Below, in pieces: positions 3,987-62,319 of a DNA stretch of 64,000 nt; the stretch's first letter is position 1, and every line of letters starts with the position of its first letter. The notes beneath the pieces are model-generated. The model made no database searches, was not told the DNA's origin, and saw only the letters and a list, made by a program, of their open reading frames with translations. Position numbers and translations under genes: made by a program. The stretch is from a phage: assembly GCA_025812035.1 (NCBI GenBank), contig GCA_025812035.1_4719.1. One strand, written 5' to 3'.

Positions 3987-6893
3987 ATGAACGATATAAA
4001 TAAAGGGCGCGTCGCCCTCGAACGTCAAATGAGCAATAATGACGTTGCGAAGGCACTCATGAACAAATTTGTCGCTCCTGCCCCGCAGTCACGTCTTTAT
4101 AATACACGTGAGGCGGAAGGAGGGAACGGTCGTTTCGGGTTAGTTGTTCCCGACCAGATGACGATGAACACGGTTACGCGTGCGACAGCGACAAACATCG
4201 AGGATAATAAAAACATTCTCGAGTTGTTCCCTGAACTTAAACGCGTGATGCAGATCTATGTTGCCGCGTTGACGAACCCTAACGATCTTAAGACGGTCGA
4301 GATGTTTATCGATAGCGAAGATTTCCCCGGCAGAGTCGCAGAAATCGTTCAGCCGATGATCGATACCATCGACACGCATTTTAAGAATATCTATAAAATA
4401 AAGACGCTTATCCCTCGTATCATCGAAGACGTCTTCTTTATCAAGGGTAGTTATAACTTCGTTGTTCTGCCCGAAAGTACGCTCGATCGTGCTATTAACG
4501 GTAACGGCCAACTGAAACTTGAAGAATACGGATTCAGAGATAACCATTTTGCAAGTTGGGGGCTTTTAGGTAACGATAGTCGCAAGCGTCAAGAAAACCA
4601 ACTGCCCGCGACGGTTTCGATGGAAGATTATTTCTCAGGCGTTAACGAAACCTTATCGTACGATCCGGTTGTTCGTATAGACAGCATTAAGTTTACCAAT
4701 ACCCTGCTTCGTGATAAGGATGGTAAATTCATTGAAGCGAAGATCGATATTCCGGATATGGTTACGGTTGTCGATAACCCGGATATCCTCCGCATGCCCA
4801 TTTTGCATCAGCGTCGAGCAGCGACAGCGGTGCAACGTGCGTTACGTGCAAACACATTAGGAGGTAGTGGTCTGGTAACGCTGTCTGGTGATCCGACTCA
4901 AACCGCAAACCGGCGTGAGCTGACGCAAGAACAGGTTAACGAGATCTGGAATAAACTCAACATCCAGCGTCATACCAAGGTATCTCCCGTTTACGCGTTG
5001 GCAACCCCAGATACGCTTGACCGTCAAAGCGTTGGTCACCCCGGCGTGATGCATGTACCGCCTGAGGCATTAGAACCAGTACATGCGCCAGGTGATCCGG
5101 AGAACCATATCGGGTATTTAGTTCAGTTGGATGAGTTTGGTTATCCGGTGCGTTTGGTTGAAGATGCGGCGTATTACAAGCAGTTGGAAGGTCGGTTGTC
5201 GAAGATCACCGCGGATATCGCAGGTACTTCAAGCAATGGCATGGCGAGCGAGATGATTGGTGCGGCCAAGAACATGGTCCAAGGTACGTCATGTAATCAG
5301 GTAGACATGTCGGCCTTCGTATCATCGTACGAATCACTGATGCAACGCTACATCGTTGAACGTATTGTCAACGGTTATCTAGGTAGTGCAGTGGAGATCG
5401 GTGCGACATCATCGTTTTACCTATCGATGCTTGCTCGTAGTCTCGCCCACAAGCAGACTCGTGTTTTGTTTATTCCTCGAGAGATGGTTACATACATCGC
5501 TTATGAATACAACAAATACGGTATCGGCCGTTCGTTGCTTGAAAGCACGAAGATGATCTCGTCACAACGCGCCATGCTCATGGTTCAGGAACTGATGGCG
5601 AAAATCAAGAGTTCGTTGAACTACACAACGCTAAGTGTAATGCTTGAAGACACCGACAGAAACCCGGTCGATACCGTCGAACAAGCGTTACATAGCTTCG
5701 CTCGTGTTTACCAGTCTGGTTTCCCACTGGGTGAAACTAACCCAATGGATATCATCAATGCGTACGAACGAAGCTCGATTCGATTGAAGGTCGAGGGGAA
5801 TAACCCACGTTTCCCGAAATTGAATACCGATGTTAGCGTCGAGCAGCGTAACTATCAGTCCCCTGATAATGAATTGATGGATCGTTACCGTCGTGACCAT
5901 TTCATGGGTCTGGGTGTTTCTCCAGAGATCGTTGATACTTCTTACCAATCTGAATTCGCAGCTTCTGTGATTACAGCTAACGCGATGCAAGAGAAACAGT
6001 TCACGGTTTGTCGTGAGGTTATCGTGAATGGGTTAACCGATCACATCAAGAAGTACACGGCTTACAGTCCTGTACTGCTGACGTCGCTGCGAAACACGGT
6101 TCGTGCGAACATGTCTAAGCTCTCCCAAGCACAATTGAAGCAGCTTTTTGGTAGCGATTTCGAAAACGGTGTCATTCGTAACGTTAACGCTTACCAGGAG
6201 ATCGATGACCAGTCAGCAACGATGGATCTGGATTACTCTAAACCAGAAGTTCAGGAAGTTATTGCCGATGCTTACGTATCCATGTTCTTAAACAGTCTGC
6301 AGGTACGTTTACCGGATAGCAATGCTCGCCGCCTTGAAGATCAGGTGCGGGAATATAATCAGTACAAGGAAGCGATTACCGCACAACTTGATGATTATTT
6401 AACGCCTGATTACGTTATGGGTCTGGGTGGAGTCGATGAAACAACATTGCAGATGATTCGTGCGTGCATTATCGGTACTGCAATGCGTACTTGGGCAAAA
6501 GAGAACAACTTCAATCAGGAGTTAGCGGATCTCTTCAGTCTCGATGATAAGAAGAATGCCGTGCAAGATTGGAAACGTGCATCCATGGAACATATCGAAA
6601 TCATGGGTAAATGCATGGGTGATTTTGCACTGTATATTCAGAATCTGACGAAGAAGATTGAAGAGAAGATGGGAGATCAAGCGCAGGACGGTAGCGTTTC
6701 ATCTGATGGCTCTTGGTCGTCTGATTCAAGTAGCGATACAGGTTCTTCTGATGACTTCGGTGGTGATGATTTCGGGGATACCGATTTCGATACCGAAACG
6801 GTGGAGGAAACCTCAACAGAGGAGACAACTACGTCTGAGGATACGACTACCGACACAACGTCGGAAGACGAGACTTCAGGTGATATTGTCTAA
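3987..6893 (+). CDS. hypothetical large protein (968 aa) with acidic Ser/Thr/Asp/Glu-rich C-terminal tail
   Basis: ORF track; AAGGAG SD 9 nt upstream of ATG; last ~75 residues are low-complexity (SSDGSWSSDSSSDTGSSDDFGGDDFGDTDFDTETVEETSTEETTTSEDTTTDTTSEDETSGD). Confidence 0.65.
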   Translation: MNDINKGRVALERQMSNNDVAKALMNKFVAPAPQSRLYNTREAEGGNGRFGLVVPDQMTMNTVTRATATNIEDNKNILELFPELKRVMQIYVAALTNPNDLKTVEMFIDSEDFPGRVAEIVQPMIDTIDTHFKNIYKIKTLIPRIIEDVFFIKGSYNFVVLPESTLDRAINGNGQLKLEEYGFRDNHFASWGLLGNDSRKRQENQLPATVSMEDYFSGVNETLSYDPVVRIDSIKFTNTLLRDKDGKFIEAKIDIPDMVTVVDNPDILRMPILHQRRAATAVQRALRANTLGGSGLVTLSGDPTQTANRRELTQEQVNEIWNKLNIQRHTKVSPVYALATPDTLDRQSVGHPGVMHVPPEALEPVHAPGDPENHIGYLVQLDEFGYPVRLVEDAAYYKQLEGRLSKITADIAGTSSNGMASEMIGAAKNMVQGTSCNQVDMSAFVSSYESLMQRYIVERIVNGYLGSAVEIGATSSFYLSMLARSLAHKQTRVLFIPREMVTYIAYEYNKYGIGRSLLESTKMISSQRAMLMVQELMAKIKSSLNYTTLSVMLEDTDRNPVDTVEQALHSFARVYQSGFPLGETNPMDIINAYERSSIRLKVEGNNPRFPKLNTDVSVEQRNYQSPDNELMDRYRRDHFMGLGVSPEIVDTSYQSEFAASVITANAMQEKQFTVCREVIVNGLTDHIKKYTAYSPVLLTSLRNTVRANMSKLSQAQLKQLFGSDFENGVIRNVNAYQEIDDQSATMDLDYSKPEVQEVIADAYVSMFLNSLQVRLPDSNARRLEDQVREYNQYKEAITAQLDDYLTPDYVMGLGGVDETTLQMIRACIIGTAMRTWAKENNFNQELADLFSLDDKKNAVQDWKRASMEHIEIMGKCMGDFALYIQNLTKKIEEKMGDQAQDGSVSSDGSWSSDSSSDTGSSDDFGGDDFGDTDFDTETVEETSTEETTTSEDTTTDTTSEDETSGDIV

Positions 6894-6923
6894 ACGGATG
6901 TAAAAAAAATAACACATAGTTAA

Positions 6924-6958
6924 CCTTCTCCCCAACCCGATGAGGGAAGGGGAGAAGG
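6924..6958. terminator. bidirectional hairpin between convergent genes
   Basis: Perfect 10-bp stem CCTTCTCCCC/GGGGAGAAGG around inner CCC-GATGA-GGG; A8 tract upstream and T-rich downstream on plus. Confidence 0.6.
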
Positions 6959-6975
6959 GCTATGCGCTATTTAAT

Positions 6976-18177: not shown

Positions 18178-18202
18178 ACGCAAAAAAAAAGAATGTACGG
18201 TT

Positions 18203-18234
18203 CCCTCCTCCAACCCGTAAGGGAAGGAGGAGGG
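18203..18234. terminator. bidirectional intrinsic terminator
   Basis: CCCTCCTCC-AA-CCC-GTAA-GGG-AA-GGAGGAGGG hairpin (GNRA-type loop); A9 tract on plus = U9 after the hairpin on minus; between convergent genes. Confidence 0.7.
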
Positions 18235-18249
18235 TTATGACCGTGTTGG

Positions 18250-21506: not shown

Positions 21507-21565
21507 TCACCTAGGTAATATAGTCGTGAAATAAACTGGATTAACAAGAATAAGACAGCATAGAA
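21507..21565 (-). promoter_or_regulatory. conserved intergenic element, copy 2 (candidate promoter)
   Basis: ~85% identical over ~59 nt to the copy at 59630-59690 (plus strand TCACCTAGGTAATATAGTCGTGAAATAAACTGGATTAACAAGAATAAGACAGCATAGAA); on minus reads …TTGTTAATCCAGTTTATTTCACGACTATATTACCTAGGTGA, upstream of the gene starting at 21451. Confidence 0.4.
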
Positions 21566-21597
21566 CCCTCTCCCAACCCATCAGGGAAGGGAGAGGG
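21566..21597 (-). terminator. hairpin terminator of the CCCTCC family
   Basis: CCCTCTCCC…GGGAGAGGG with inner CCC-ATCA-GGG; followed on minus by TTCTATGCTGTCTTATTC. Confidence 0.55.
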
Positions 21598-21601
21598 AAT
21601 A

Positions 21602-26818: not shown

Positions 26819-26870
26819 CGCAGATTCCTGTTTGAAAGATAAGATATCACATGATGGTTGACAGCATAAA

Positions 26871-26890
26871 GCCCACCCCGAAGGGCGGGC
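26871..26890 (-). terminator. hairpin terminator
   Basis: GCCCACCC-CGAA-GGGCGGGC (one mismatch); followed on minus by TTTATGCTGTCAACC. Confidence 0.5.
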
Positions 26891-26906
26891 TGTTTATGCG
26901 TACTGG

Positions 26907-32679: not shown

Positions 32680-32699
32680 TTGGGACTCCTACGTAGGGA

Positions 32700-32780
32700 A
32701 ATCTTGGCGGGTGATCATGTCCGCCATTTACCTTCTGAATCATTAATTCAGAATGCGGAATATGAAGCAAGGCTTCATAC
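32700..32780 (-). promoter_or_regulatory. structured 5' leader with three consecutive stem-loops upstream of gene 31378..32679
   Basis: GGCGG-GTGATCATGT-CCGCC; TTCTGAAT-CATTA-ATTCAGAA; TGAAGC-AAG-GCTTCA, between the terminator hairpin and the SD. Confidence 0.35.
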
Positions 32781-32818
32781 CCAAGTCAAAAGATAACCGG
32801 ATGTTAACAGCATAATCA

Positions 32819-32850
32819 CCTCCTCCAACCCGTAAGGGAAGGAGGAGGGT
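32819..32850 (-). terminator. hairpin terminator of the CCCTCC family
   Basis: CCTCCTCC-AACCCGTAAGGGAA-GGAGGAGGG; followed on minus by GATTATGCTGTTAACATCC. Confidence 0.55.
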
Positions 32851-32858
32851 TATGGTGG

Positions 32859-35474: not shown

Positions 35475-35521
35475 GTGTTGTCTCCAGTAACAATTCAAAA
35501 GATAAACCAGAACGGCATAAA

Positions 35522-35553
35522 CCCCTCTCCCAACCCGTAAGGGAAGGGAGAGG
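35522..35553 (-). terminator. hairpin terminator of the CCCTCC family
   Basis: CCCTCTCCC-AACCCGTAAGGGAA-GGGAGAGGG; followed on minus by U-rich TTTATGCCGTTCTGGTTTATCTTTTG. Confidence 0.6.
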
Positions 35554-35576
35554 GAATATATCAGTTTATTAACCGA

Positions 35577-43782: not shown

Positions 43783-43803
43783 AACAAAATAGCAAGTACA
43801 TAA

Positions 43804-43835
43804 CCCTCCTCCAACCCGTAAGGGAAGGAGGAGGG
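43804..43835. terminator. bidirectional hairpin between convergent large genes
   Basis: CCCTCCTCC-AACCCGTAAGGGAA-GGAGGAGGG, same inner loop as the 18203 copy. Confidence 0.65.
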
Positions 43836-43844
43836 AATATGTTG

Positions 43845-54090: not shown

Positions 54091-54138
54091 TTAAAGTATG
54101 TTGATCCTCGTTTAACAAAAAAGAAAACGCATGCGAAG

Positions 54139-54170
54139 CCCCTCCCCCTGGCGGAAGCCGGAGGGAGGGG
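54139..54170. terminator. hairpin terminator after the polymerase gene
   Basis: CCCCTCCC…CGG-AAG-CCG…GGGAGGGG imperfect nested stem, then TGGAGGTTTTATGTGTTTTTAATT on plus; convergent with the first gene of the small-paralog array. Confidence 0.6.
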
Positions 54171-54188
54171 TGGAGGTTTTATGTGTTT

Positions 54189-59065: not shown

Positions 59066-59094
59066 TTAATGATGAAATGCTGTAAAAAAAAAAT

Positions 59095-59112
59095 GGTGGG
59101 GCGAACCCCACC
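59095..59112 (-). terminator. intrinsic terminator downstream of gene 59137..59562
   Basis: On minus: GGTGGGG-UUCG-CCCCACC followed by U10. Confidence 0.75.
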
Positions 59113-59136
59113 GAAACGTCAGACACACGCAGAAAA

Positions 59137-59562: not shown

Positions 59563-59629
59563 TTTGACATCCTCTTATATTGGATTGATTACAGTTATCT
59601 TAAATAGGCGATAAGATATCTTGCTCTTA

Positions 59630-59690
59630 TCACCTTAGTAATATAGCCGTGAAATAAATTGTGTTAACAAGAAATAAAACAGCATAGAAC
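59630..59690 (-). promoter_or_regulatory. conserved intergenic element, copy 3 (candidate promoter)
   Basis: Plus strand TCACCTTAGTAATATAGCCGTGAAATAAATTGTGTTAACAAGAAATAAAACAGCATAGAA; between a hairpin and the gene starting at 59562. Confidence 0.4.
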
Positions 59691-59730
59691 CCTCCTCCCC
59701 CATCCTTCAAGAGGACGGTGGGAAGAGGGA
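59690..59730 (-). terminator. imperfect nested hairpin of the CCCTCC family
   Basis: CCCTCCTCC…CCATCCT-TCAAG-AGGACGG…GGAAGAGGG; followed on minus by TTCTATGCTGTTTTATTTC. Confidence 0.45.
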
Positions 59731-59736
59731 GAGAGA

Positions 59737-60138
59737 TTAAATGTCGTGGACGGCAACGCTGTTTAACCAGCAATACAGCTTAACGCGACACGGATACCGC
59801 TTCATTGCAGCAACCATTTCATCGCGTAAACGCTGGTAGATTTCATCCTGGTGTTCACGTTCAATGGGGTAATCAGCCCAACATTCGATCATGACGTCAC
59901 CATTAGTCAGAATCGTCGTACGCATCCTGTCCTGGACACGACGATCTTTCCCAGCATTAGGGAAATACATCCCTTCAGTACGAATAAGGTCGCCGCAGGG
60001 CATGACTAACCATTCGTTCGTTTTGCCGGTATTCTTATAATCCATTACAGCTTGCATTGCGGTGTCAACGCTAAAAGAAACATAATTCCAAACGGGTGTC
60101 CAACGATAGATTGCAGGTTGTTCAAGTGTTTCGTTCAT
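59737..60138 (-). CDS. hypothetical protein (133 aa)
   Basis: ORF track; AGGAAAAG SD. Confidence 0.55.
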   Translation of the reverse strand: MNETLEQPAIYRWTPVWNYVSFSVDTAMQAVMDYKNTGKTNEWLVMPCGDLIRTEGMYFPNAGKDRRVQDRMRTTILTNGDVMIECWADYPIEREHQDEIYQRLRDEMVAAMKRYPCRVKLYCWLNSVAVHDI

Positions 60139-60193
60139 GAGGCGCTTTTCCTATTTTTTATTTTCTGCACAGGATAAATTCAACGGCATAAAG

Positions 60194-60225
60194 CCCTTCC
60201 CTGCCCTTATATGGGGCGGGAAGAG
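60194..60225 (-). terminator. imperfect hairpin in a 215-bp noncoding gap
   Basis: CCCTTCCCTGCCC-TTATAT-GGGGCGGGAAGAG; followed on minus by CTTTATGCCGTTGAATTT. Confidence 0.4.
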
Positions 60226-60353
60226 TTTATGACCGCAATGAGAATCTCTCACGACAAGCTCACGACGATTATCGCATCACCCCGCGAGTGAGGGAGATCA
60301 GGATCACCTCCTACGTCGTAATGACAGCAATCCTGTTAACGCCGCCTTAGACG

Positions 60354-60992
60354 TTATGCAAAGCGACGCATGTAACCTGCCAGGTAGTTACGTGTATCGA
60401 AGTAGGCAATTTCAGGAATTGCGATATTAAGGTCGATAGCACGGATTTCAACCTGGCGACGGCTTTCATCATAGATCGCATCCATCAGACGCAGTACTGT
60501 CAGGAAAGCCATGCGGGTATGGTAGTCCAGCGGCATGTTATCGATGCCACGATACAGGTAACGATTTGCGTTGAATGCCCCTTCGCTGTTATCTTTCCAG
60601 ATCTTCAGAATATCAGCAAAGGCGGTGCGGAAAACCTCAGGATTATCCACATCCAGTAACGCACGGAAAGCAGACATTAAAGATCGCTGATGACGGATCA
60701 AGGACTGCGGCGTTTGCGGCATGGTCGGACCCATTTCTTCCGCATATTTCTGGAACGGGGCAACCAGGGTTGCGGCGCGAGAAGCAACGATAGAAATAGC
60801 AGGCGATTCATTCACCGCTGGTTTCGCAGGCTTTTCTTCAACTGCGGTTTCCTTCTTCTCAACAACGACCGTTTTCGGTTGTGCTACAACGTTGTTGGTC
60901 GGAGCAGCAGCCGCACCATTTTCCACGGCGGTCTCTACTGCTGTAATCTTTTCGTCCATTTGTGCGGAACGTTGGTCTTTATTCTTGCTCAT
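60354..60992 (-). CDS. hypothetical protein (212 aa), highly expressed by codon usage, Lys/Glu/Ala/Pro-rich N-terminal region
   Basis: ORF track; AAAGGAAA SD; codon bias similar to the capsid candidate. Confidence 0.6.
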   Translation of the reverse strand: MSKNKDQRSAQMDEKITAVETAVENGAAAAPTNNVVAQPKTVVVEKKETAVEEKPAKPAVNESPAISIVASRAATLVAPFQKYAEEMGPTMPQTPQSLIRHQRSLMSAFRALLDVDNPEVFRTAFADILKIWKDNSEGAFNANRYLYRGIDNMPLDYHTRMAFLTVLRLMDAIYDESRRQVEIRAIDLNIAIPEIAYFDTRNYLAGYMRRFA

Positions 60993-61017
60993 GTTTATTT
61001 CCTTTCATTTAACAAGG

Positions 61018-62319
61018 TTAACTAATATAAAGTTCAGGATCGTAAGGCGCTAACGATACACTGGCGTTATGCATTGCTTTCATCATAGTGTTCATGAAAA
61101 CGTTGTTTACACCGGTGATCTCTGCCCCGATCGCGTCTGGGGTTGGAGCCATCGCGTTACCGCAACAGGTAGCACAGTATTCCAACGGACCCGCTTTACA
61201 GCGCTGAGGATCGCGTAACTTGATGGTCTGTCCTTCCAAGGAAGCAAGTAAGTCAGCATCAATAAGTTTAAGCGCTGCACCGTCGATCATATAACGTCCG
61301 ACAAGCAGCTTATCTTTGATGTGATCACGGTTCACCGTGAACAGGATATGTTCTTGGGTACCGCAGTCGTCCATCGTGATTTTAAGGTTCTGTGTCGCAC
61401 GTTGTGATTCCTTAGCTGTTTGTCCAGCTAAAGCGGTCAACGCACCACGTGAGAACGAACCAGCACGCGCACTGTTGTTATACTCTGCCCAATGGTCGAC
61501 ACGCATCCCTTCAGCCAGGCTGTGTGTGATAACGTTACGTTTACCAGGGTCAACGAAGTCAGCTTCAACCCCCATCATGATGTGCGTTTTCTTTCGAGTA
61601 TTACCGAAACTCTTGCCAGGGTTAATATAGAACCCTTCCGACTCATCACCCTTAAAGGATTCCTTATCCATTTTGGTTAGCGTGGCCTCGAGTTTGATCA
61701 GTTCTTCAGGTGTGAACTTACCTTCTTCTTGTAGACGTGCTAACTCTTTATCACGATAGGCGATAATATCGTCATCGACCGTTAACGCTTTATCGCTCAT
61801 CGATGGAACAATTAAACGGTTGATGGCGGTTAATGCGCTGATATTGTTGGTGAATTTCTTCACCTCGCTCGCATACAACGGACCAATCGGACGTTCGTTA
61901 GGATCAGGTATCCCCTCTTCAGGATCATCCGCTACGCGTGGTGCAATCAATGATTCCAATGTACCGCTGGTCAACCGTCCCGCCTGGTATTCAATCTGAA
62001 TCCCGAAAGCGTCATAAAGGACGTACATATTGAACAACGCTTCACCGAAGGTTGTGGTGGTTGTGTTCTTAACCGACGGTAGATCACCAGGCGCAAGCTC
62101 CAACGGATCCCAGAAATTCAACAAGGGTTTTGTTGGCTCTGTTTCCCATTGATGTTCTTCACCGTCGATGGTAACCGTAACGATGTTTCCCTGACGACGT
62201 AATTTAGGCTGATACTTCTCAGCGCCACCTTCCGTAAAAGCAAATGCGTCGTTAATCCACTCAAGATAACGGTAGTGCCCTTCACGCAACGCGTAAAGGA
62301 AATAATCACGAGGTGTCAT
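61018..62319 (-). CDS. multisubunit RNA polymerase beta' subunit fragment (region F bridge helix to start of trigger loop)
   Basis: ORF track; AAAGGAG SD. Segment order and wording parallel E. coli beta': PDG…ARxG…ALTALAGQTAK (bridge helix, cf. GARKGLADTALKTANSG), TMDDCGTQEHIL (cf. TEDDCGTHEGIM), RCKAGPLEYCATCCGN (cf. CDTDFGVCAHCYGR Zn motif), PDAIGAEITG…TMMKAMH (cf. [25 protein letters not shown]). No NADFDGD, and the protein ends just after the trigger-loop start. Confidence 0.5.
   Translation of the reverse strand: MTPRDYFLYALREGHYRYLEWINDAFAFTEGGAEKYQPKLRRQGNIVTVTIDGEEHQWETEPTKPLLNFWDPLELAPGDLPSVKNTTTTTFGEALFNMYVLYDAFGIQIEYQAGRLTSGTLESLIAPRVADDPEEGIPDPNERPIGPLYASEVKKFTNNISALTAINRLIVPSMSDKALTVDDDIIAYRDKELARLQEEGKFTPEELIKLEATLTKMDKESFKGDESEGFYINPGKSFGNTRKKTHIMMGVEADFVDPGKRNVITHSLAEGMRVDHWAEYNNSARAGSFSRGALTALAGQTAKESQRATQNLKITMDDCGTQEHILFTVNRDHIKDKLLVGRYMIDGAALKLIDADLLASLEGQTIKLRDPQRCKAGPLEYCATCCGNAMAPTPDAIGAEITGVNNVFMNTMMKAMHNASVSLAPYDPELYIS

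Follow-up and report, generated by a model that had tools for sequence, protein, structure and literature searches.

A Shine-Dalgarno (SD) sequence that does not serve a start codon is known from the stabilising SD (STAB-SD) elements of mRNA, for which the leader of Bacillus thuringiensis cryIIIA and the polypurine stabiliser of the Bacillus subtilis phage SP82 are examples. In these cases, the bound 30S subunit affects the fate of the RNA and not its translation, and one of the classical examples is derived from a phage. This paper describes an orphan SD sequence located in the gap at positions 60139-60353 of a 64,000-nt stretch of phage DNA (NCBI GenBank assembly GCA_025812035.1, contig GCA_025812035.1_4719.1), the whole of which is referred to as the window. 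The sequence, AGGAGGUGAUCC at 60301-60312 on the minus strand, is a perfect 12-nt complement of the 3' tail of 16S rRNA and is part of a structured RNA element with relatives in many phages.

Like the STAB-SD and the polypurine stabilisers of mRNA 5' ends (reviewed in PMC4113751 and PMC3997798), the sequence in the window is an orphan SD with extended complementarity to the 16S rRNA 3' end and without a start codon at functional spacing. The STAB-SD stabilisers are single-stranded, lie near the 5' end, and shield the downstream RNA from 5'-3' decay in Firmicutes. In contrast, the element described here is folded and masked, contains additional invariant blocks (AUCUCCC and a GGGUUA loop), lies just past a stop codon, is often followed at once by a terminator, and is also present in phages of E. 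coli and Erwinia, hosts which are devoid of RNase J. Its position in the window, in a 3' untranslated region (UTR) upstream of a terminator-like hairpin, shows no obvious fit to the 5' location of STAB-SD.

Ribosome standby sites are known from the model of the MS2 coat gene and from tisB mRNA. Here, the likeness consists in a non-initiating 30S site on the mRNA upstream of a structured region or cistron. However, standby sites as described lack structure and have no need of an rRNA complement of 12-16 nt, and in the window no cistron is present before the terminator-like hairpin. In eukaryotes, the termination upstream ribosome-binding sites (TURBS) of caliciviruses and influenza B pair with helix 26 of 18S rRNA. 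TURBS are likewise viral mRNA motifs which are complementary to small-subunit rRNA at a stop codon, and they are thought to tether the post-termination subunit. They are positioned upstream of an overlapping stop and start and serve re-initiation, whereas in the element the complement is found downstream of the stop codon, and the next start is 40-140 nt off or absent.

Two further systems resemble single features of the element. The 3' UTR of Staphylococcus aureus icaR contains a pyrimidine-rich anti-SD-like sequence, comparable to AUCUCCC, which is able to pair with an SD; however, the icaR motif pairs with the SD at the 5' end of its own gene (PMC3868564), while in the element the pairing is local and involves the orphan SD. 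The Rfam families GP20-a and GP20-b and the candidate structured RNAs (csRNAs) found upstream of phage GP20 (scaffold) genes (PMC10690425) occupy the same intergenic niche and were also found computationally. The element is not matched by GP20-a or GP20-b, and none of the GP20-a, GP20-b or csRNA motifs has been linked to 16S complementarity.

The window is a relative of Escherichia phage vB_EcoM_Goslar, a jumbo phage of E. coli that forms a nucleus, with 97% identity over positions 59700-61000. The gap separates two minus-strand open reading frames (ORFs), the homologues of Goslar_00077 (gp77, 60354-60992) upstream and of Goslar_00076 (gp76, 59737-60138) downstream. The minus-strand RNA at 60265-60335 belongs to a large family of structured phage RNAs; it is conserved and non-coding, and very probably represents a copy of a widespread phage RNA motif. 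The Goslar copy is a somewhat atypical member of this apparently unannotated family, which is directed at the 3' tail of 16S rRNA or mimics the partner of this tail. With regard to function, the reading that we favour, tentatively and at slightly less than an even chance, is that of a masked 30S docking site of very high affinity in the gp77 3' UTR, as suggested by the predicted folds and duplexes.

The initial annotation, which was made from the sequence alone, had pointed out the plus-strand 12-mer GGATCACCTCCT at 60301-60312 as identical to the 3' end of enterobacterial 16S rRNA. The 12-mer is present, and its identity holds for E. coli, where a 38-nt 16S 3' end terminating in GGATCACCTCCTTA was found to be 100% identical in 5426 of 5426 genomes and is annotated as 16S rRNA. 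It is the only exact copy in the window; with up to two mismatches 7 matches were identified (2.9 expected), and the 9-mer AGGAGGTGA occurs three times compared to an expectation of 0.27, a count which was reached by none of 100 shuffles. Since all neighbours are encoded on the minus strand, this strand is the expected sense of the RNA. On this gene-sense strand, the sequence is a genuine and conserved extended SD without a start codon. No ATG, GTG or TTG is present at functional spacing, but only the GTG inside the SD and ATC/CTG, and the minicistron ATG-CGA-TAA is found 28 nt away at 60277-60269 (minus strand). A translation-initiation region, consisting of a start codon 5-9 nt after the SD core and a conserved ORF, was not found in the window.

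Every 16-nt segment on both strands of the window was scanned against the 14-nt 16S tail. The segment at 60298-60313 (minus strand) was the strongest predicted binder, with the exceptional value of -23.8 kcal/mol, followed by a site with -20.7 kcal/mol. The SD sequences used by gp76, gp77 and gp78 themselves reach only -5.6 to -8.2 kcal/mol with the 16S tail, with the weakest duplex formed by the SD of gp76.

In the predicted folds, this high-affinity sequence is masked. The minus-strand RNA of the gap folds with -79.8 kcal/mol (z = -4.0), and none of 200 shuffles was as good. No predicted fold leaves the SD unpaired, and opening it requires +6.4 to +7.9 kcal/mol; in the window, the cost of +7.9 kcal/mol compares to -23.8 kcal/mol for the duplex with the 16S tail, which leaves a net value of about -16 kcal/mol. 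An upstream masking arm (CAGGAUUGCU...GU, 60313-60335, minus strand) is predicted to pair with AGGAGGUGAUCCUG in a 16-bp hairpin of -12.8 kcal/mol. The complementarity of arm and SD amounts to -14.1 kcal/mol, as compared to -7.0 +/- 2.4 kcal/mol for shuffled arms, 12 of 1000 of which reach the native value. On the other side of the SD, the anti-SD-like strand AUCUCCC (60292-60298, minus strand), which is invariant in the family, is predicted to pair with GGAGGU, or with GGUGAU, and to form hairpin H1 with a GAUCC+NN loop (-7.2 kcal/mol). It is followed by the second hairpin of the family, H2, which has a G-rich loop of the GGGUUA type and in the window consists of UCGC, the loop GGGGUGAU and GCGA (60272-60287, minus strand). 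The order of blocks in the window is thus GGUGAUCC-UG-AUCUCCC-UCAC-[UCGC GGGGUGAU GCGA].

The wider family was identified by pattern searches in IMG/VR. The exact 20-nt pattern AGGAGGTGATCCNNATCTCC was found in 46 stretches, about a dozen of which are contigs of 260-268 kb that are identical or close to the Alexandravirus phages of Erwinia and Dickeya (pEa_SNUABM_1, vB_DsoM_AD1). In these phages, the element fills the gap between gp210 and gp209, both of which are unrelated to Goslar gp77 and gp76, and synteny was rejected as the cause of the Alexandravirus copy because the flanking proteins are unrelated. The remaining matches are small and mid-size contigs which share one design: a stop codon is followed by AGGAGGUGAUCC, by two nucleotides that vary, by AUCUCC and a single C, and by a short hairpin with a loop that often reads (A/G)GGGUUA(N), beyond which a terminator or the next gene is found. 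At least 120 IMG/VR stretches contain a gapped pattern (GGAGGTGATCC N1-4 AYCTCC N3-25 GGRTYA). Block statistics were obtained from 118 of these matches, namely among those listed; while the pattern allowed both AUCUCC and ACCUCC and four different loops, AUCUCC was found in 117 and ACCUCC in one, and the loop was GGGUUA in 108 and GGGUCA in 10 matches, with GGAUCA or GGAUUA in none. The spacer was mostly 3 or 4 nt in this set.

From these comparisons, the family is defined by a 16S-tail complement that always ends in GGUGAUCC and in the window is the uninterrupted 12-mer, by a spacer of 2-4 nt followed by the invariant AUCUCCC which folds back on the complement, and by one C followed by a covarying hairpin with a GGGUUA loop or a G-rich variant of it. 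The stop codon of the upstream gene is usually found right at the 5' edge of the element, and a terminator is often located at or just past the second hairpin. The covariation of H2 was determined in a MAFFT alignment of 43 distinct members, in which six of the seven pairs are changed on both sides (76 cells). The covariation score was 0.234, compared to 0.065 +/- 0.011 after shuffling (reached by 0 of 500) and to values of 0.10 or lower for slid controls.

A covariance model, designated R1, was built from the 43 members without any Goslar or Alexandravirus sequences. With filters off, a search of both strands of the 64 kb window resulted in a single significant match, at 60265-60319 on the minus strand (29.8 bits, E = 3.3e-7). 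Goslar itself scored 29.8 bits, the divergent Goslar-like locus L010 38.3 bits and the Alexandravirus copies 20-24 bits. The Streptococcus (S. mitis) phage SM1 was matched with 44.1 bits in the gap between gp37 (DUF6275) and the terminase gene; phage TP901-1 gave no R1 match. One copy is present per genome. When 596 Gb of bacterial and archaeal genomes were searched with the same 20-nt pattern, 56 stretches were obtained, most of them inside high-GC coding sequence. Bacterial genomes were rejected as the home of the motif, since most of these matches encode peptides such as KEVIRIS and are attributed to chance; a few prophage-like copies or copies in metagenome-assembled genomes have the full architecture and look genuine.

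No Rfam 15 family matched the element of the window at E values up to 10. For 12 other member loci, searched at E values up to 1, only a sub-threshold match to CC2171 was obtained (30.6 bits, with a gathering threshold of 75), and at gathering thresholds none of 19 member loci had an Rfam match over the element. Identity to the Caulobacter small RNA CC2171 was rejected, because the match consists only of the SD (the GAAAGGAGGUGAUCC 5' end) and the terminator. No description of the element was found in the literature, which was searched by the RNA sequence and for orphan or STAB-SD sequences of phages and the transcription of Goslar. The family is apparently undescribed, with the csRNA catalogue (PMC10690425, 10,006 models that are not in Rfam) lying outside this comparison. 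The initial annotation had overlooked these distant relatives, as well as the masking by folding, the role of the direct repeat as an arm of an RNA helix, and the recurrent terminator module, which are described below.

The question of whether pairing with the 16S tail is the conserved trait was approached with a scan that fixed only CC-NNN-TATCTCCC...AGGGTTA; among all searches, this was the only one that relaxed the SD part, and the invariance of H1, which is given by construction, is uninformative. In the 143 instances obtained, the 9-mer before the CC was GGAGGTGAT in 49, GGCGGTGAT in 30, GACGGTGAT in 26 and TAAGGTGAT in 9, with others being rarer. GGTGAT was retained in about 130 of the 143, and the GGAGG core was frequently interrupted, so that the invariant core is GGUGAUCC. 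The variants read UAG-AAAGGA-C-GGUGAUCC, AGAAAGG-C-GGUGAUCC or GGAAGGA-UAA-GGUGAUCC, and thus consist of two blocks which are complementary to the two halves of a Firmicute 16S tail (3'-UCUUUCCUCCACUAGG-5') with a bulge or mismatch between them. Members with an interrupted core retain a purine block such as AGAAAGGA just past the stop codon. Their mean predicted duplex energy with the Firmicute tail is -21.5 kcal/mol, compared to -24.7 kcal/mol for intact members and -10.0 kcal/mol for the SD regions of the downstream genes, and the element is the stronger predicted binder in 93 of 93 comparisons with the SD region of the downstream gene. For a conserved pairing with the rRNA tail, the best argument is that the 5' purine block is retained although nothing inside the element pairs with it. 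Wobbles or mismatches are always present in the pairings of the internal partners, namely AUCUCCC, GGGUUA and the arms in Goslar.

The same scan changed the view of H1. In a first model, H1 (GGAGGU/AUCUCC) had been the defining helix; this model was weakened, as the A of GGAGG is often a C or replaced by an insertion. In the alternative register GGUGAU/AUCUCC, which contains a U.U mismatch, and in the contact UGAUCC/GGGUUA, all partners are invariant.

For the favoured docking site, the following course of events can be envisaged. The tail complement would be held in metastable pairings with the upstream arm, with AUCUCCC and possibly with the GGGUUA loop, through a loop-loop contact with UGAUCC. 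Once the fold is opened, the perfect duplex of 12-16 bp with the 16S tail would win, and the likeliest opener would be a ribosome reaching the adjacent or nearby stop codon. The docked 30S subunit would have no start codon to use and would not initiate. As possible outcomes, the subunit could be handed over to the next cistron by standby or re-initiation, it could protect the flanking RNA from nucleases in the manner of STAB-SD, or it could interfere with the following terminator hairpin, the 5' strand of which would fall in the footprint of the docked subunit. The initial annotation had suggested a ribosome standby or sequestration site for the gap; a ribosome-binding role of this kind is retained here as the best reading. 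A standby site would be expected to offer a single-stranded landing place beside the structured initiation region of a following cistron; the SD is paired in the predicted folds, and gp76 lies beyond the terminator-like hairpin, while in other members a cistron is found within 40-140 nt. A more general proposal, possible but rather doubtful at present, is that phages of unrelated bacteria share a latent RNA device which pairs with the whole free 16S 3' tail (12-16 bp), is masked by imperfect internal mimics and is armed by upstream translation, and which thereby captures post-termination 30S subunits. It would be a counterpart of TURBS, or a ribosome trap that meters the production of, for example, holins, and would represent a class of ribosome-directed viral RNA element.

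If docking of 30S subunits is true, phages ranging from siphoviruses of gut Firmicutes to nucleus-forming jumbo phages of E. coli would exploit rRNA complementarity well past that of a normal SD, and would use it to manage ribosomes after termination. We know of no dedicated mRNA signals for the post-termination step in bacteria. The element would then also provide synthetic biology with a compact natural ribosome-binding module of the toehold-masked type. Goslar offers a testable handle in this respect, being a genetically tractable model of the phage nucleus in which the mRNA meets ribosomes only after export. Even without a link to the ribosome, the element represents a well-supported family of structured RNA.

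Several points weigh against the docking site. Binding of the ribosome is deduced from complementarity and calculated energies. About two thirds of the instances from the SD-free scan have an interrupted GGAGG core (as GGCGG, GGA-C-GG or GGA-UAA-GG), and in many this canonical core is dispensable. Most members were retrieved with patterns that fix parts of the motif, and the invariance of these parts is given by construction. As GGUGAUCC, AUCUCCC and GGGUUA are invariant, H1 and the loop-loop contact are beyond the reach of covariation, and the invariant blocks could also be contacts of a protein or parts of a tertiary fold. A duplex of 12-16 bp with the rRNA might trap subunits, with no evident gain for the phage. 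In the Goslar lineage, moreover, the stop codon does not abut the element but lies 41 nt from the 12-mer (19 nt in L010), and the element precedes a terminator-like hairpin and not a cistron, which shows that hand-over is not the whole story. Finally, invariant runs of 103 and 85 nt are also present inside the coding sequences of gp78 and gp77; with coding runs that are equally long, the local conservation of the element is by itself only suggestive.

In the main rival explanation, a non-ribosomal partner would recognise the fold formed by the three blocks, whose invariance leaves no covariation. The element would be a cis-acting structured RNA, a switch or a protein site, in which the likeness to an SD is a by-product and pairing with 16S rRNA does not occur; control would be exerted by the fold as such or by a protein of the phage or host that binds it, and would act on how transcript 3' ends are formed, on read-through of the following terminator, or on how stable or how well translated an adjacent cistron is. 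We consider this explanation unlikely, but of real weight. The three blocks are mutually complementary (GGAGGU/AUCUCC, GGUGAU/AUCUCC with U.U, and UGAUCC/GGGUUA), the rare variants GGUAAUCC and GGUGGUCC from the SD-free scan and GAUCU in phage SM1 fit the loop-loop pairing, and the interruption of GGAGG in the SD-unbiased sample is consistent with a by-product. H2 itself resembles a terminator in about 40% of members, the cis-regulatory GP20-b of Rfam is found directly 3' of the element in one member, and scaffold genes are located downstream in 11 of 43 contexts. Against this, the purine block AGAAAGGA has no internal partner, and yet members with interrupted cores form a predicted duplex of about -22 to -25 kcal/mol with the complete 16-nt rRNA tail. 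An internal helix would also be expected to covary across phages of the Firmicute, Proteobacteria and high-GC types, but it is invariant, as for a universal partner, and the flanking genes (holins, DUF6275, Tad2-like proteins, scaffold, lysins, terminase) are too diverse for one regulatory protein.

The genomic context of the family bears both on the docking site and on its rivals. In 102 of 164 instances, an ORF of at least 50 amino acids terminates upstream of GGAGG at a distance of no more than about 11 nt, and in 100 of these 102 the stop codon ends between -1 and +3 nt before GGAGG; with its greater stop-codon distance, the Goslar lineage is an atypical member of the family. Among 52 distinct upstream proteins, 20 are holins, with DUF6275, DUF4406 and Tad2-like proteins as others. 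Downstream, scaffold (GP20) genes were identified in 11 of 43 cases and endolysins in about six, in addition to terminases and tail tube proteins. In the annotation of phage genomes, the family would serve as a marker for the downstream border of late genes such as those for holins, and for the upstream border of scaffold and terminase genes. A terminator-like hairpin with a U run is present within 140 nt in 79 of 144 members, compared to 79 of 363 control windows. In 60 of the 79, the terminator ends 0-40 nt past AUCUCCC, so that it is H2 itself or the next hairpin, and stem and U run are provided by H2 itself in the terminator-like members mentioned above. The order found in Goslar, with the element followed by a terminator-like hairpin, is therefore a common arrangement. 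In other members a cistron follows within 40-140 nt, and in many the downstream cistron is reached without an intervening terminator; in the window, gp76 lies beyond the terminator-like hairpin and a possible promoter.

In the contig L144 (10758-10821, minus strand), a match to GP20-b (46.6 bits) begins about 10 nt past the element and before the scaffold gene, and the same was observed for L248 and contigs of the L170 type. What has been published as GP20-b may represent the 3' portion of a leader that is larger and composite. In the Alexandravirus copy, a segment ACUUAACAGUCGG shows a loose similarity, and no GP20-b match was obtained.

The frequent combination of element and terminator would also suit a small RNA, a possibility named in the initial annotation, that acts in trans. 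Such an RNA, extending from the masked SD to the terminator hairpin and either processed from the 3' UTR or transcribed separately, would accumulate and act as a ribosome sponge or would use AUCUCCC as an anti-SD seed against the SD sequences of other mRNAs. The unusual stability of the gap RNA (-79.8 kcal/mol, z = -4.0) and the sub-threshold CC2171 match, which rests on the GAAAGGAGGUGAUCC 5' end and the terminator, are in line with this. However, a promoter is not apparent in the stretch from the stop codon to the element, with only 19 nt from stop to 12-mer in L010. Many members have an element that overlaps the stop codon of the preceding gene and a cistron that follows without a terminator, for which a cis role is the better fit, and with one copy per genome a stoichiometric titration of ribosomes is doubtful. 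Altogether, a small RNA is regarded as quite unlikely.

Conservation was analysed in 12 Goslar-like genomes, including 11 further loci from IMG/VR and metagenome scans. The conservation of the gap in related phages had been named as a check in the initial annotation, and the 12-mer was found to be invariant in 12 of 12 loci. In a four-genome alignment of 2.7 kb (the window, Goslar and two IMG/VR relatives), a substitution-free block of 95 nt was identified at 60227-60321 (minus strand), and of 89 core positions one is variable. Immediately upstream of the block, 9 of 39 nt vary (0.23 per site), the terminator hairpin contains 6 in 46, and the third codon positions of the neighbouring genes vary by 0.21-0.37. 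The 4-bp stem of H2, UCGC/GCGA, is invariant within the Goslar-like phages and is uninformative there. In the divergent pair L010/L014, several positions are altered and the 22 nt upstream of the unchanged 12-mer are swapped for an unrelated sequence. This arm, GGGUAGCUCC, is again predicted to pair with the SD, with -12.2 kcal/mol compared to -7.6 +/- 2.3 kcal/mol for shuffles (37 of 1000 reach the value). The H2 loop of this pair is AGGGUUAC, the consensus of the family, and the R1 score is raised from 29.8 to 38.3 bits. A long inner pairing, designated P2, in the minimum free energy (MFE) fold of the window was dropped in favour of the short H2 of the family; the L010 changes there fall in the H2 loop.

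These comparisons bear on the suggestion that the SD was left behind when a gene start was lost, or that it matches by chance and has no function. The flanking genes are ORFans restricted to the lineage, and a single 12-mer match is possible by chance, with about 0.008 expected per window. Nevertheless, the 12-mer is the same in all 12 genomes, with adjacent non-coding positions varying at about 0.23 per site, the masking arm was replaced in one lineage and masking was kept, R1 as an independent model supports the family membership, and the same architecture is present in unrelated phages. The suggestion is effectively refuted by the comparative data, and the probability left to it is negligible.

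Coding is likewise excluded as the main explanation of the element. A very short gene might be seen in the GTG frame (MILISLTRGVMR), in the minicistron, in a 33-amino-acid minus-strand ORF at 60151-60252, or in a plus-strand ORF at 60229-60291 (MTAMRISHDKLTTIIASPRE), given that a very strong SD is present and that two of the L010 substitutions are synonymous in the GTG frame and two in the plus-strand ORF. The GTG overlaps the SD, however, which leaves zero spacing. The ATG of the minicistron is changed to ACG (ACG-CGA-TAA) in L010/L014, so that the minicistron is lost in this pair, and the 33-amino-acid ORF is frame-shifted by 1-nt indels in relatives. The plus-strand ORF of 20 amino acids is devoid of an SD, is cut short by a stop at codon 17 in L010 and has the change M4V in L011. 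In the family, the spacer is 2, 3 or 4 nt, so that no reading frame is kept, and ORFs in the GTG frame vary from 12 to 81 codons; a conserved short ORF that uses the SD was not found among the members. A short gene is accordingly held to be extremely improbable. The plus-strand ORF, which is considered spurious, overlaps the element and begins at a TTTATG that mirrors the minus-strand TATG across the hairpin.

The direct repeat noted in the initial annotation was confirmed, with copies of CTCACGAC at 60248-60255 and 60259-60266, 11 nt from start to start. In the minus sense, it reads GUCGUGAG-CUU-GUCGUGAG (60248-60266), and in the MFE folds the two GUCGUGAG copies are predicted to be the 3' strands of an outer helix specific for Goslar, in which they pair with CUCAC (60292-60288) and AUCUC. 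In a comparison limited to two sequences, all L010 substitutions keep or improve this pairing (C-G to U-G, G-U to A-U, and others). By these models, the repeat is a helix strand specific for the lineage, and a 20-mer derived from it matched only three Goslar-like contigs in IMG/VR. Alternatively, the two copies, spaced by one helical turn of 11 bp, and the imperfect palindromes could bind a phage replication, packaging or transcription factor as a site on the DNA, and both the invariance of the block in four genomes and the promoter-like TATG motif close by are compatible with this. Yet the repeat is confined to the Goslar lineage and absent from the family, L010 has a changed version of one copy (CTCACAAC), the 8-mer shows no enrichment in the window (3 compared to 2.5 expected), and the covariation of the hairpin together with the fixed orientation to flanking genes and stop codons points to RNA. 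A DNA-level function is thus very unlikely.

The imperfect hairpin of the initial annotation was located at 60187-60231, in the 3' part of the gap. On the minus strand, it forms a GC-rich hairpin (CAUAAACUCUUCCCGCCCC/AUAUAA/GGGCAGGGAAGGGCUUUAUG) which ends in CUUUAUG and carries TATG at its 3' end (60190-60187). With this module set apart, the remaining 60232-60353 represents the gp77 3' UTR. The stem is strong and is kept by the substitutions in divergent relatives. The tail, CUUUAUGCC, is not a clean U run, so that no terminator was called here by a consensus scanner. The hairpin is a separate, ordinary terminator-like hairpin of the window phage, and together with (T)TTATGC(C/T)GT it forms a module that is found again in no fewer than six further gaps of the window. 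It is found on the minus strand at 21548-21601, 26819-26906, 32680-32858, 35499-35576, 43783-43844 and 59563-59736, in addition to 60187-60231, and its hairpin is often CCCTCCTCCTTCCC-TTAC-GGGTTGGAGGAGGG, directly followed by the TTATGC motif. TATGCYGT occurs 11 times in the window (3.6 expected), always on the minus strand. TATG is the late-promoter consensus of the phiKZ non-virion RNA polymerase (nvRNAP), with the G as +1 (PMC7618050). By its sequence, the recurring module looks like a terminator, possibly fused to a TATG start or restart site for an nvRNAP of the phiKZ type, and it may define a middle or late promoter of Goslar. The second-best 16S-tail binder of the window (-20.7 kcal/mol; 32811-32826, minus strand), GGAGGAGGTGATTATG, is the 3' arm of a terminator hairpin, and several terminator stems of this phage are made of GGAGGAGG/CCTCCTCC.

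At the other end of the gap, the gp77 stop codon TAA (60356-60354, minus strand) is part of a small variable hairpin, UAACGUC/GGCGUUA (60337-60356, minus strand). This hairpin varies in the relatives but stays pairable (C-G to U-G, U-G to C-G, U-G to U-A), and it is deleted in L010/L014; from the sequences, it appears dispensable. At 60139-60186 (minus strand), gp76 has an AU-rich leader that contains the weak SD of this gene (AGGAAAA), and the duplex of this SD with 16S rRNA amounts to only -5.6 kcal/mol.

The gp77 and gp76 proteins have no relatives in the phage collection besides Goslar, and on sequence grounds the flanking genes are classed as lineage-restricted ORFans. A gene similar to RNA polymerase beta is located just upstream of the gap region. 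The gap sequence occurs at a single location in the Goslar genome and has no match in E. coli DNA, so that a captured fragment of rRNA or small RNA was rejected as its origin. At the end of the gp78 homologue and the gp78/gp77 junction (61008-61110, minus strand), a run of 103 nt is free of substitutions in four genomes; it exceeds the run of the element, and third codon positions elsewhere in gp78 vary by 0.22. An overlapping signal, such as the translation-initiation region of gp77 or an RNA structure, and a recent recombination tract are possible explanations. In the IMG/VR relatives L002 (6270-6723) and L003, an additional ORF of about 150 amino acids is present between the gp76 homologue and the next terminator module; this ORF is lacking in both the window and Goslar.

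For a general helix with an upstream strand that would pair with UCC and the spacer and present the SD in a loop, the signal was weak and specific for subsets of the family (20 full helices compared to 8.8 +/- 2.0 after shuffling). The perfect 14-nt palindrome TTGCGACGTCGCAA was observed about 10 nt past H2 in one subfamily of gut phage contigs, L120, L124, L138, L152, L185, L193 and L216, with the variant TTGTGACATCACAA in L215; it could be a further hairpin or a protein operator. Among the large contigs, the Alexandravirus-like L134 (IMGVR_UViG_2974797171, 267 kb) has a canonical GGGUUA loop in its copy at 4212-4272, and in the pEa_SNUABM_1 group the loop is UGACUACU, which could pair with a downstream AGUAG in the manner of a pseudoknot. 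Arrays of tRNA genes are present in the element-bearing contigs L125 (at least 17) and L150 (at least 13) and also in L236, and L120 contains a transfer-messenger RNA (tmRNA) gene. In the window itself, hairpins similar to the recurring one, flanked by CATAA and, at the opposite end, by a long T run, are present at 6894-6975, 18178-18249, 54091-54188 and 59066-59136; located between convergent genes or at the ends of operons, they look by their sequence like bidirectional intrinsic terminators.

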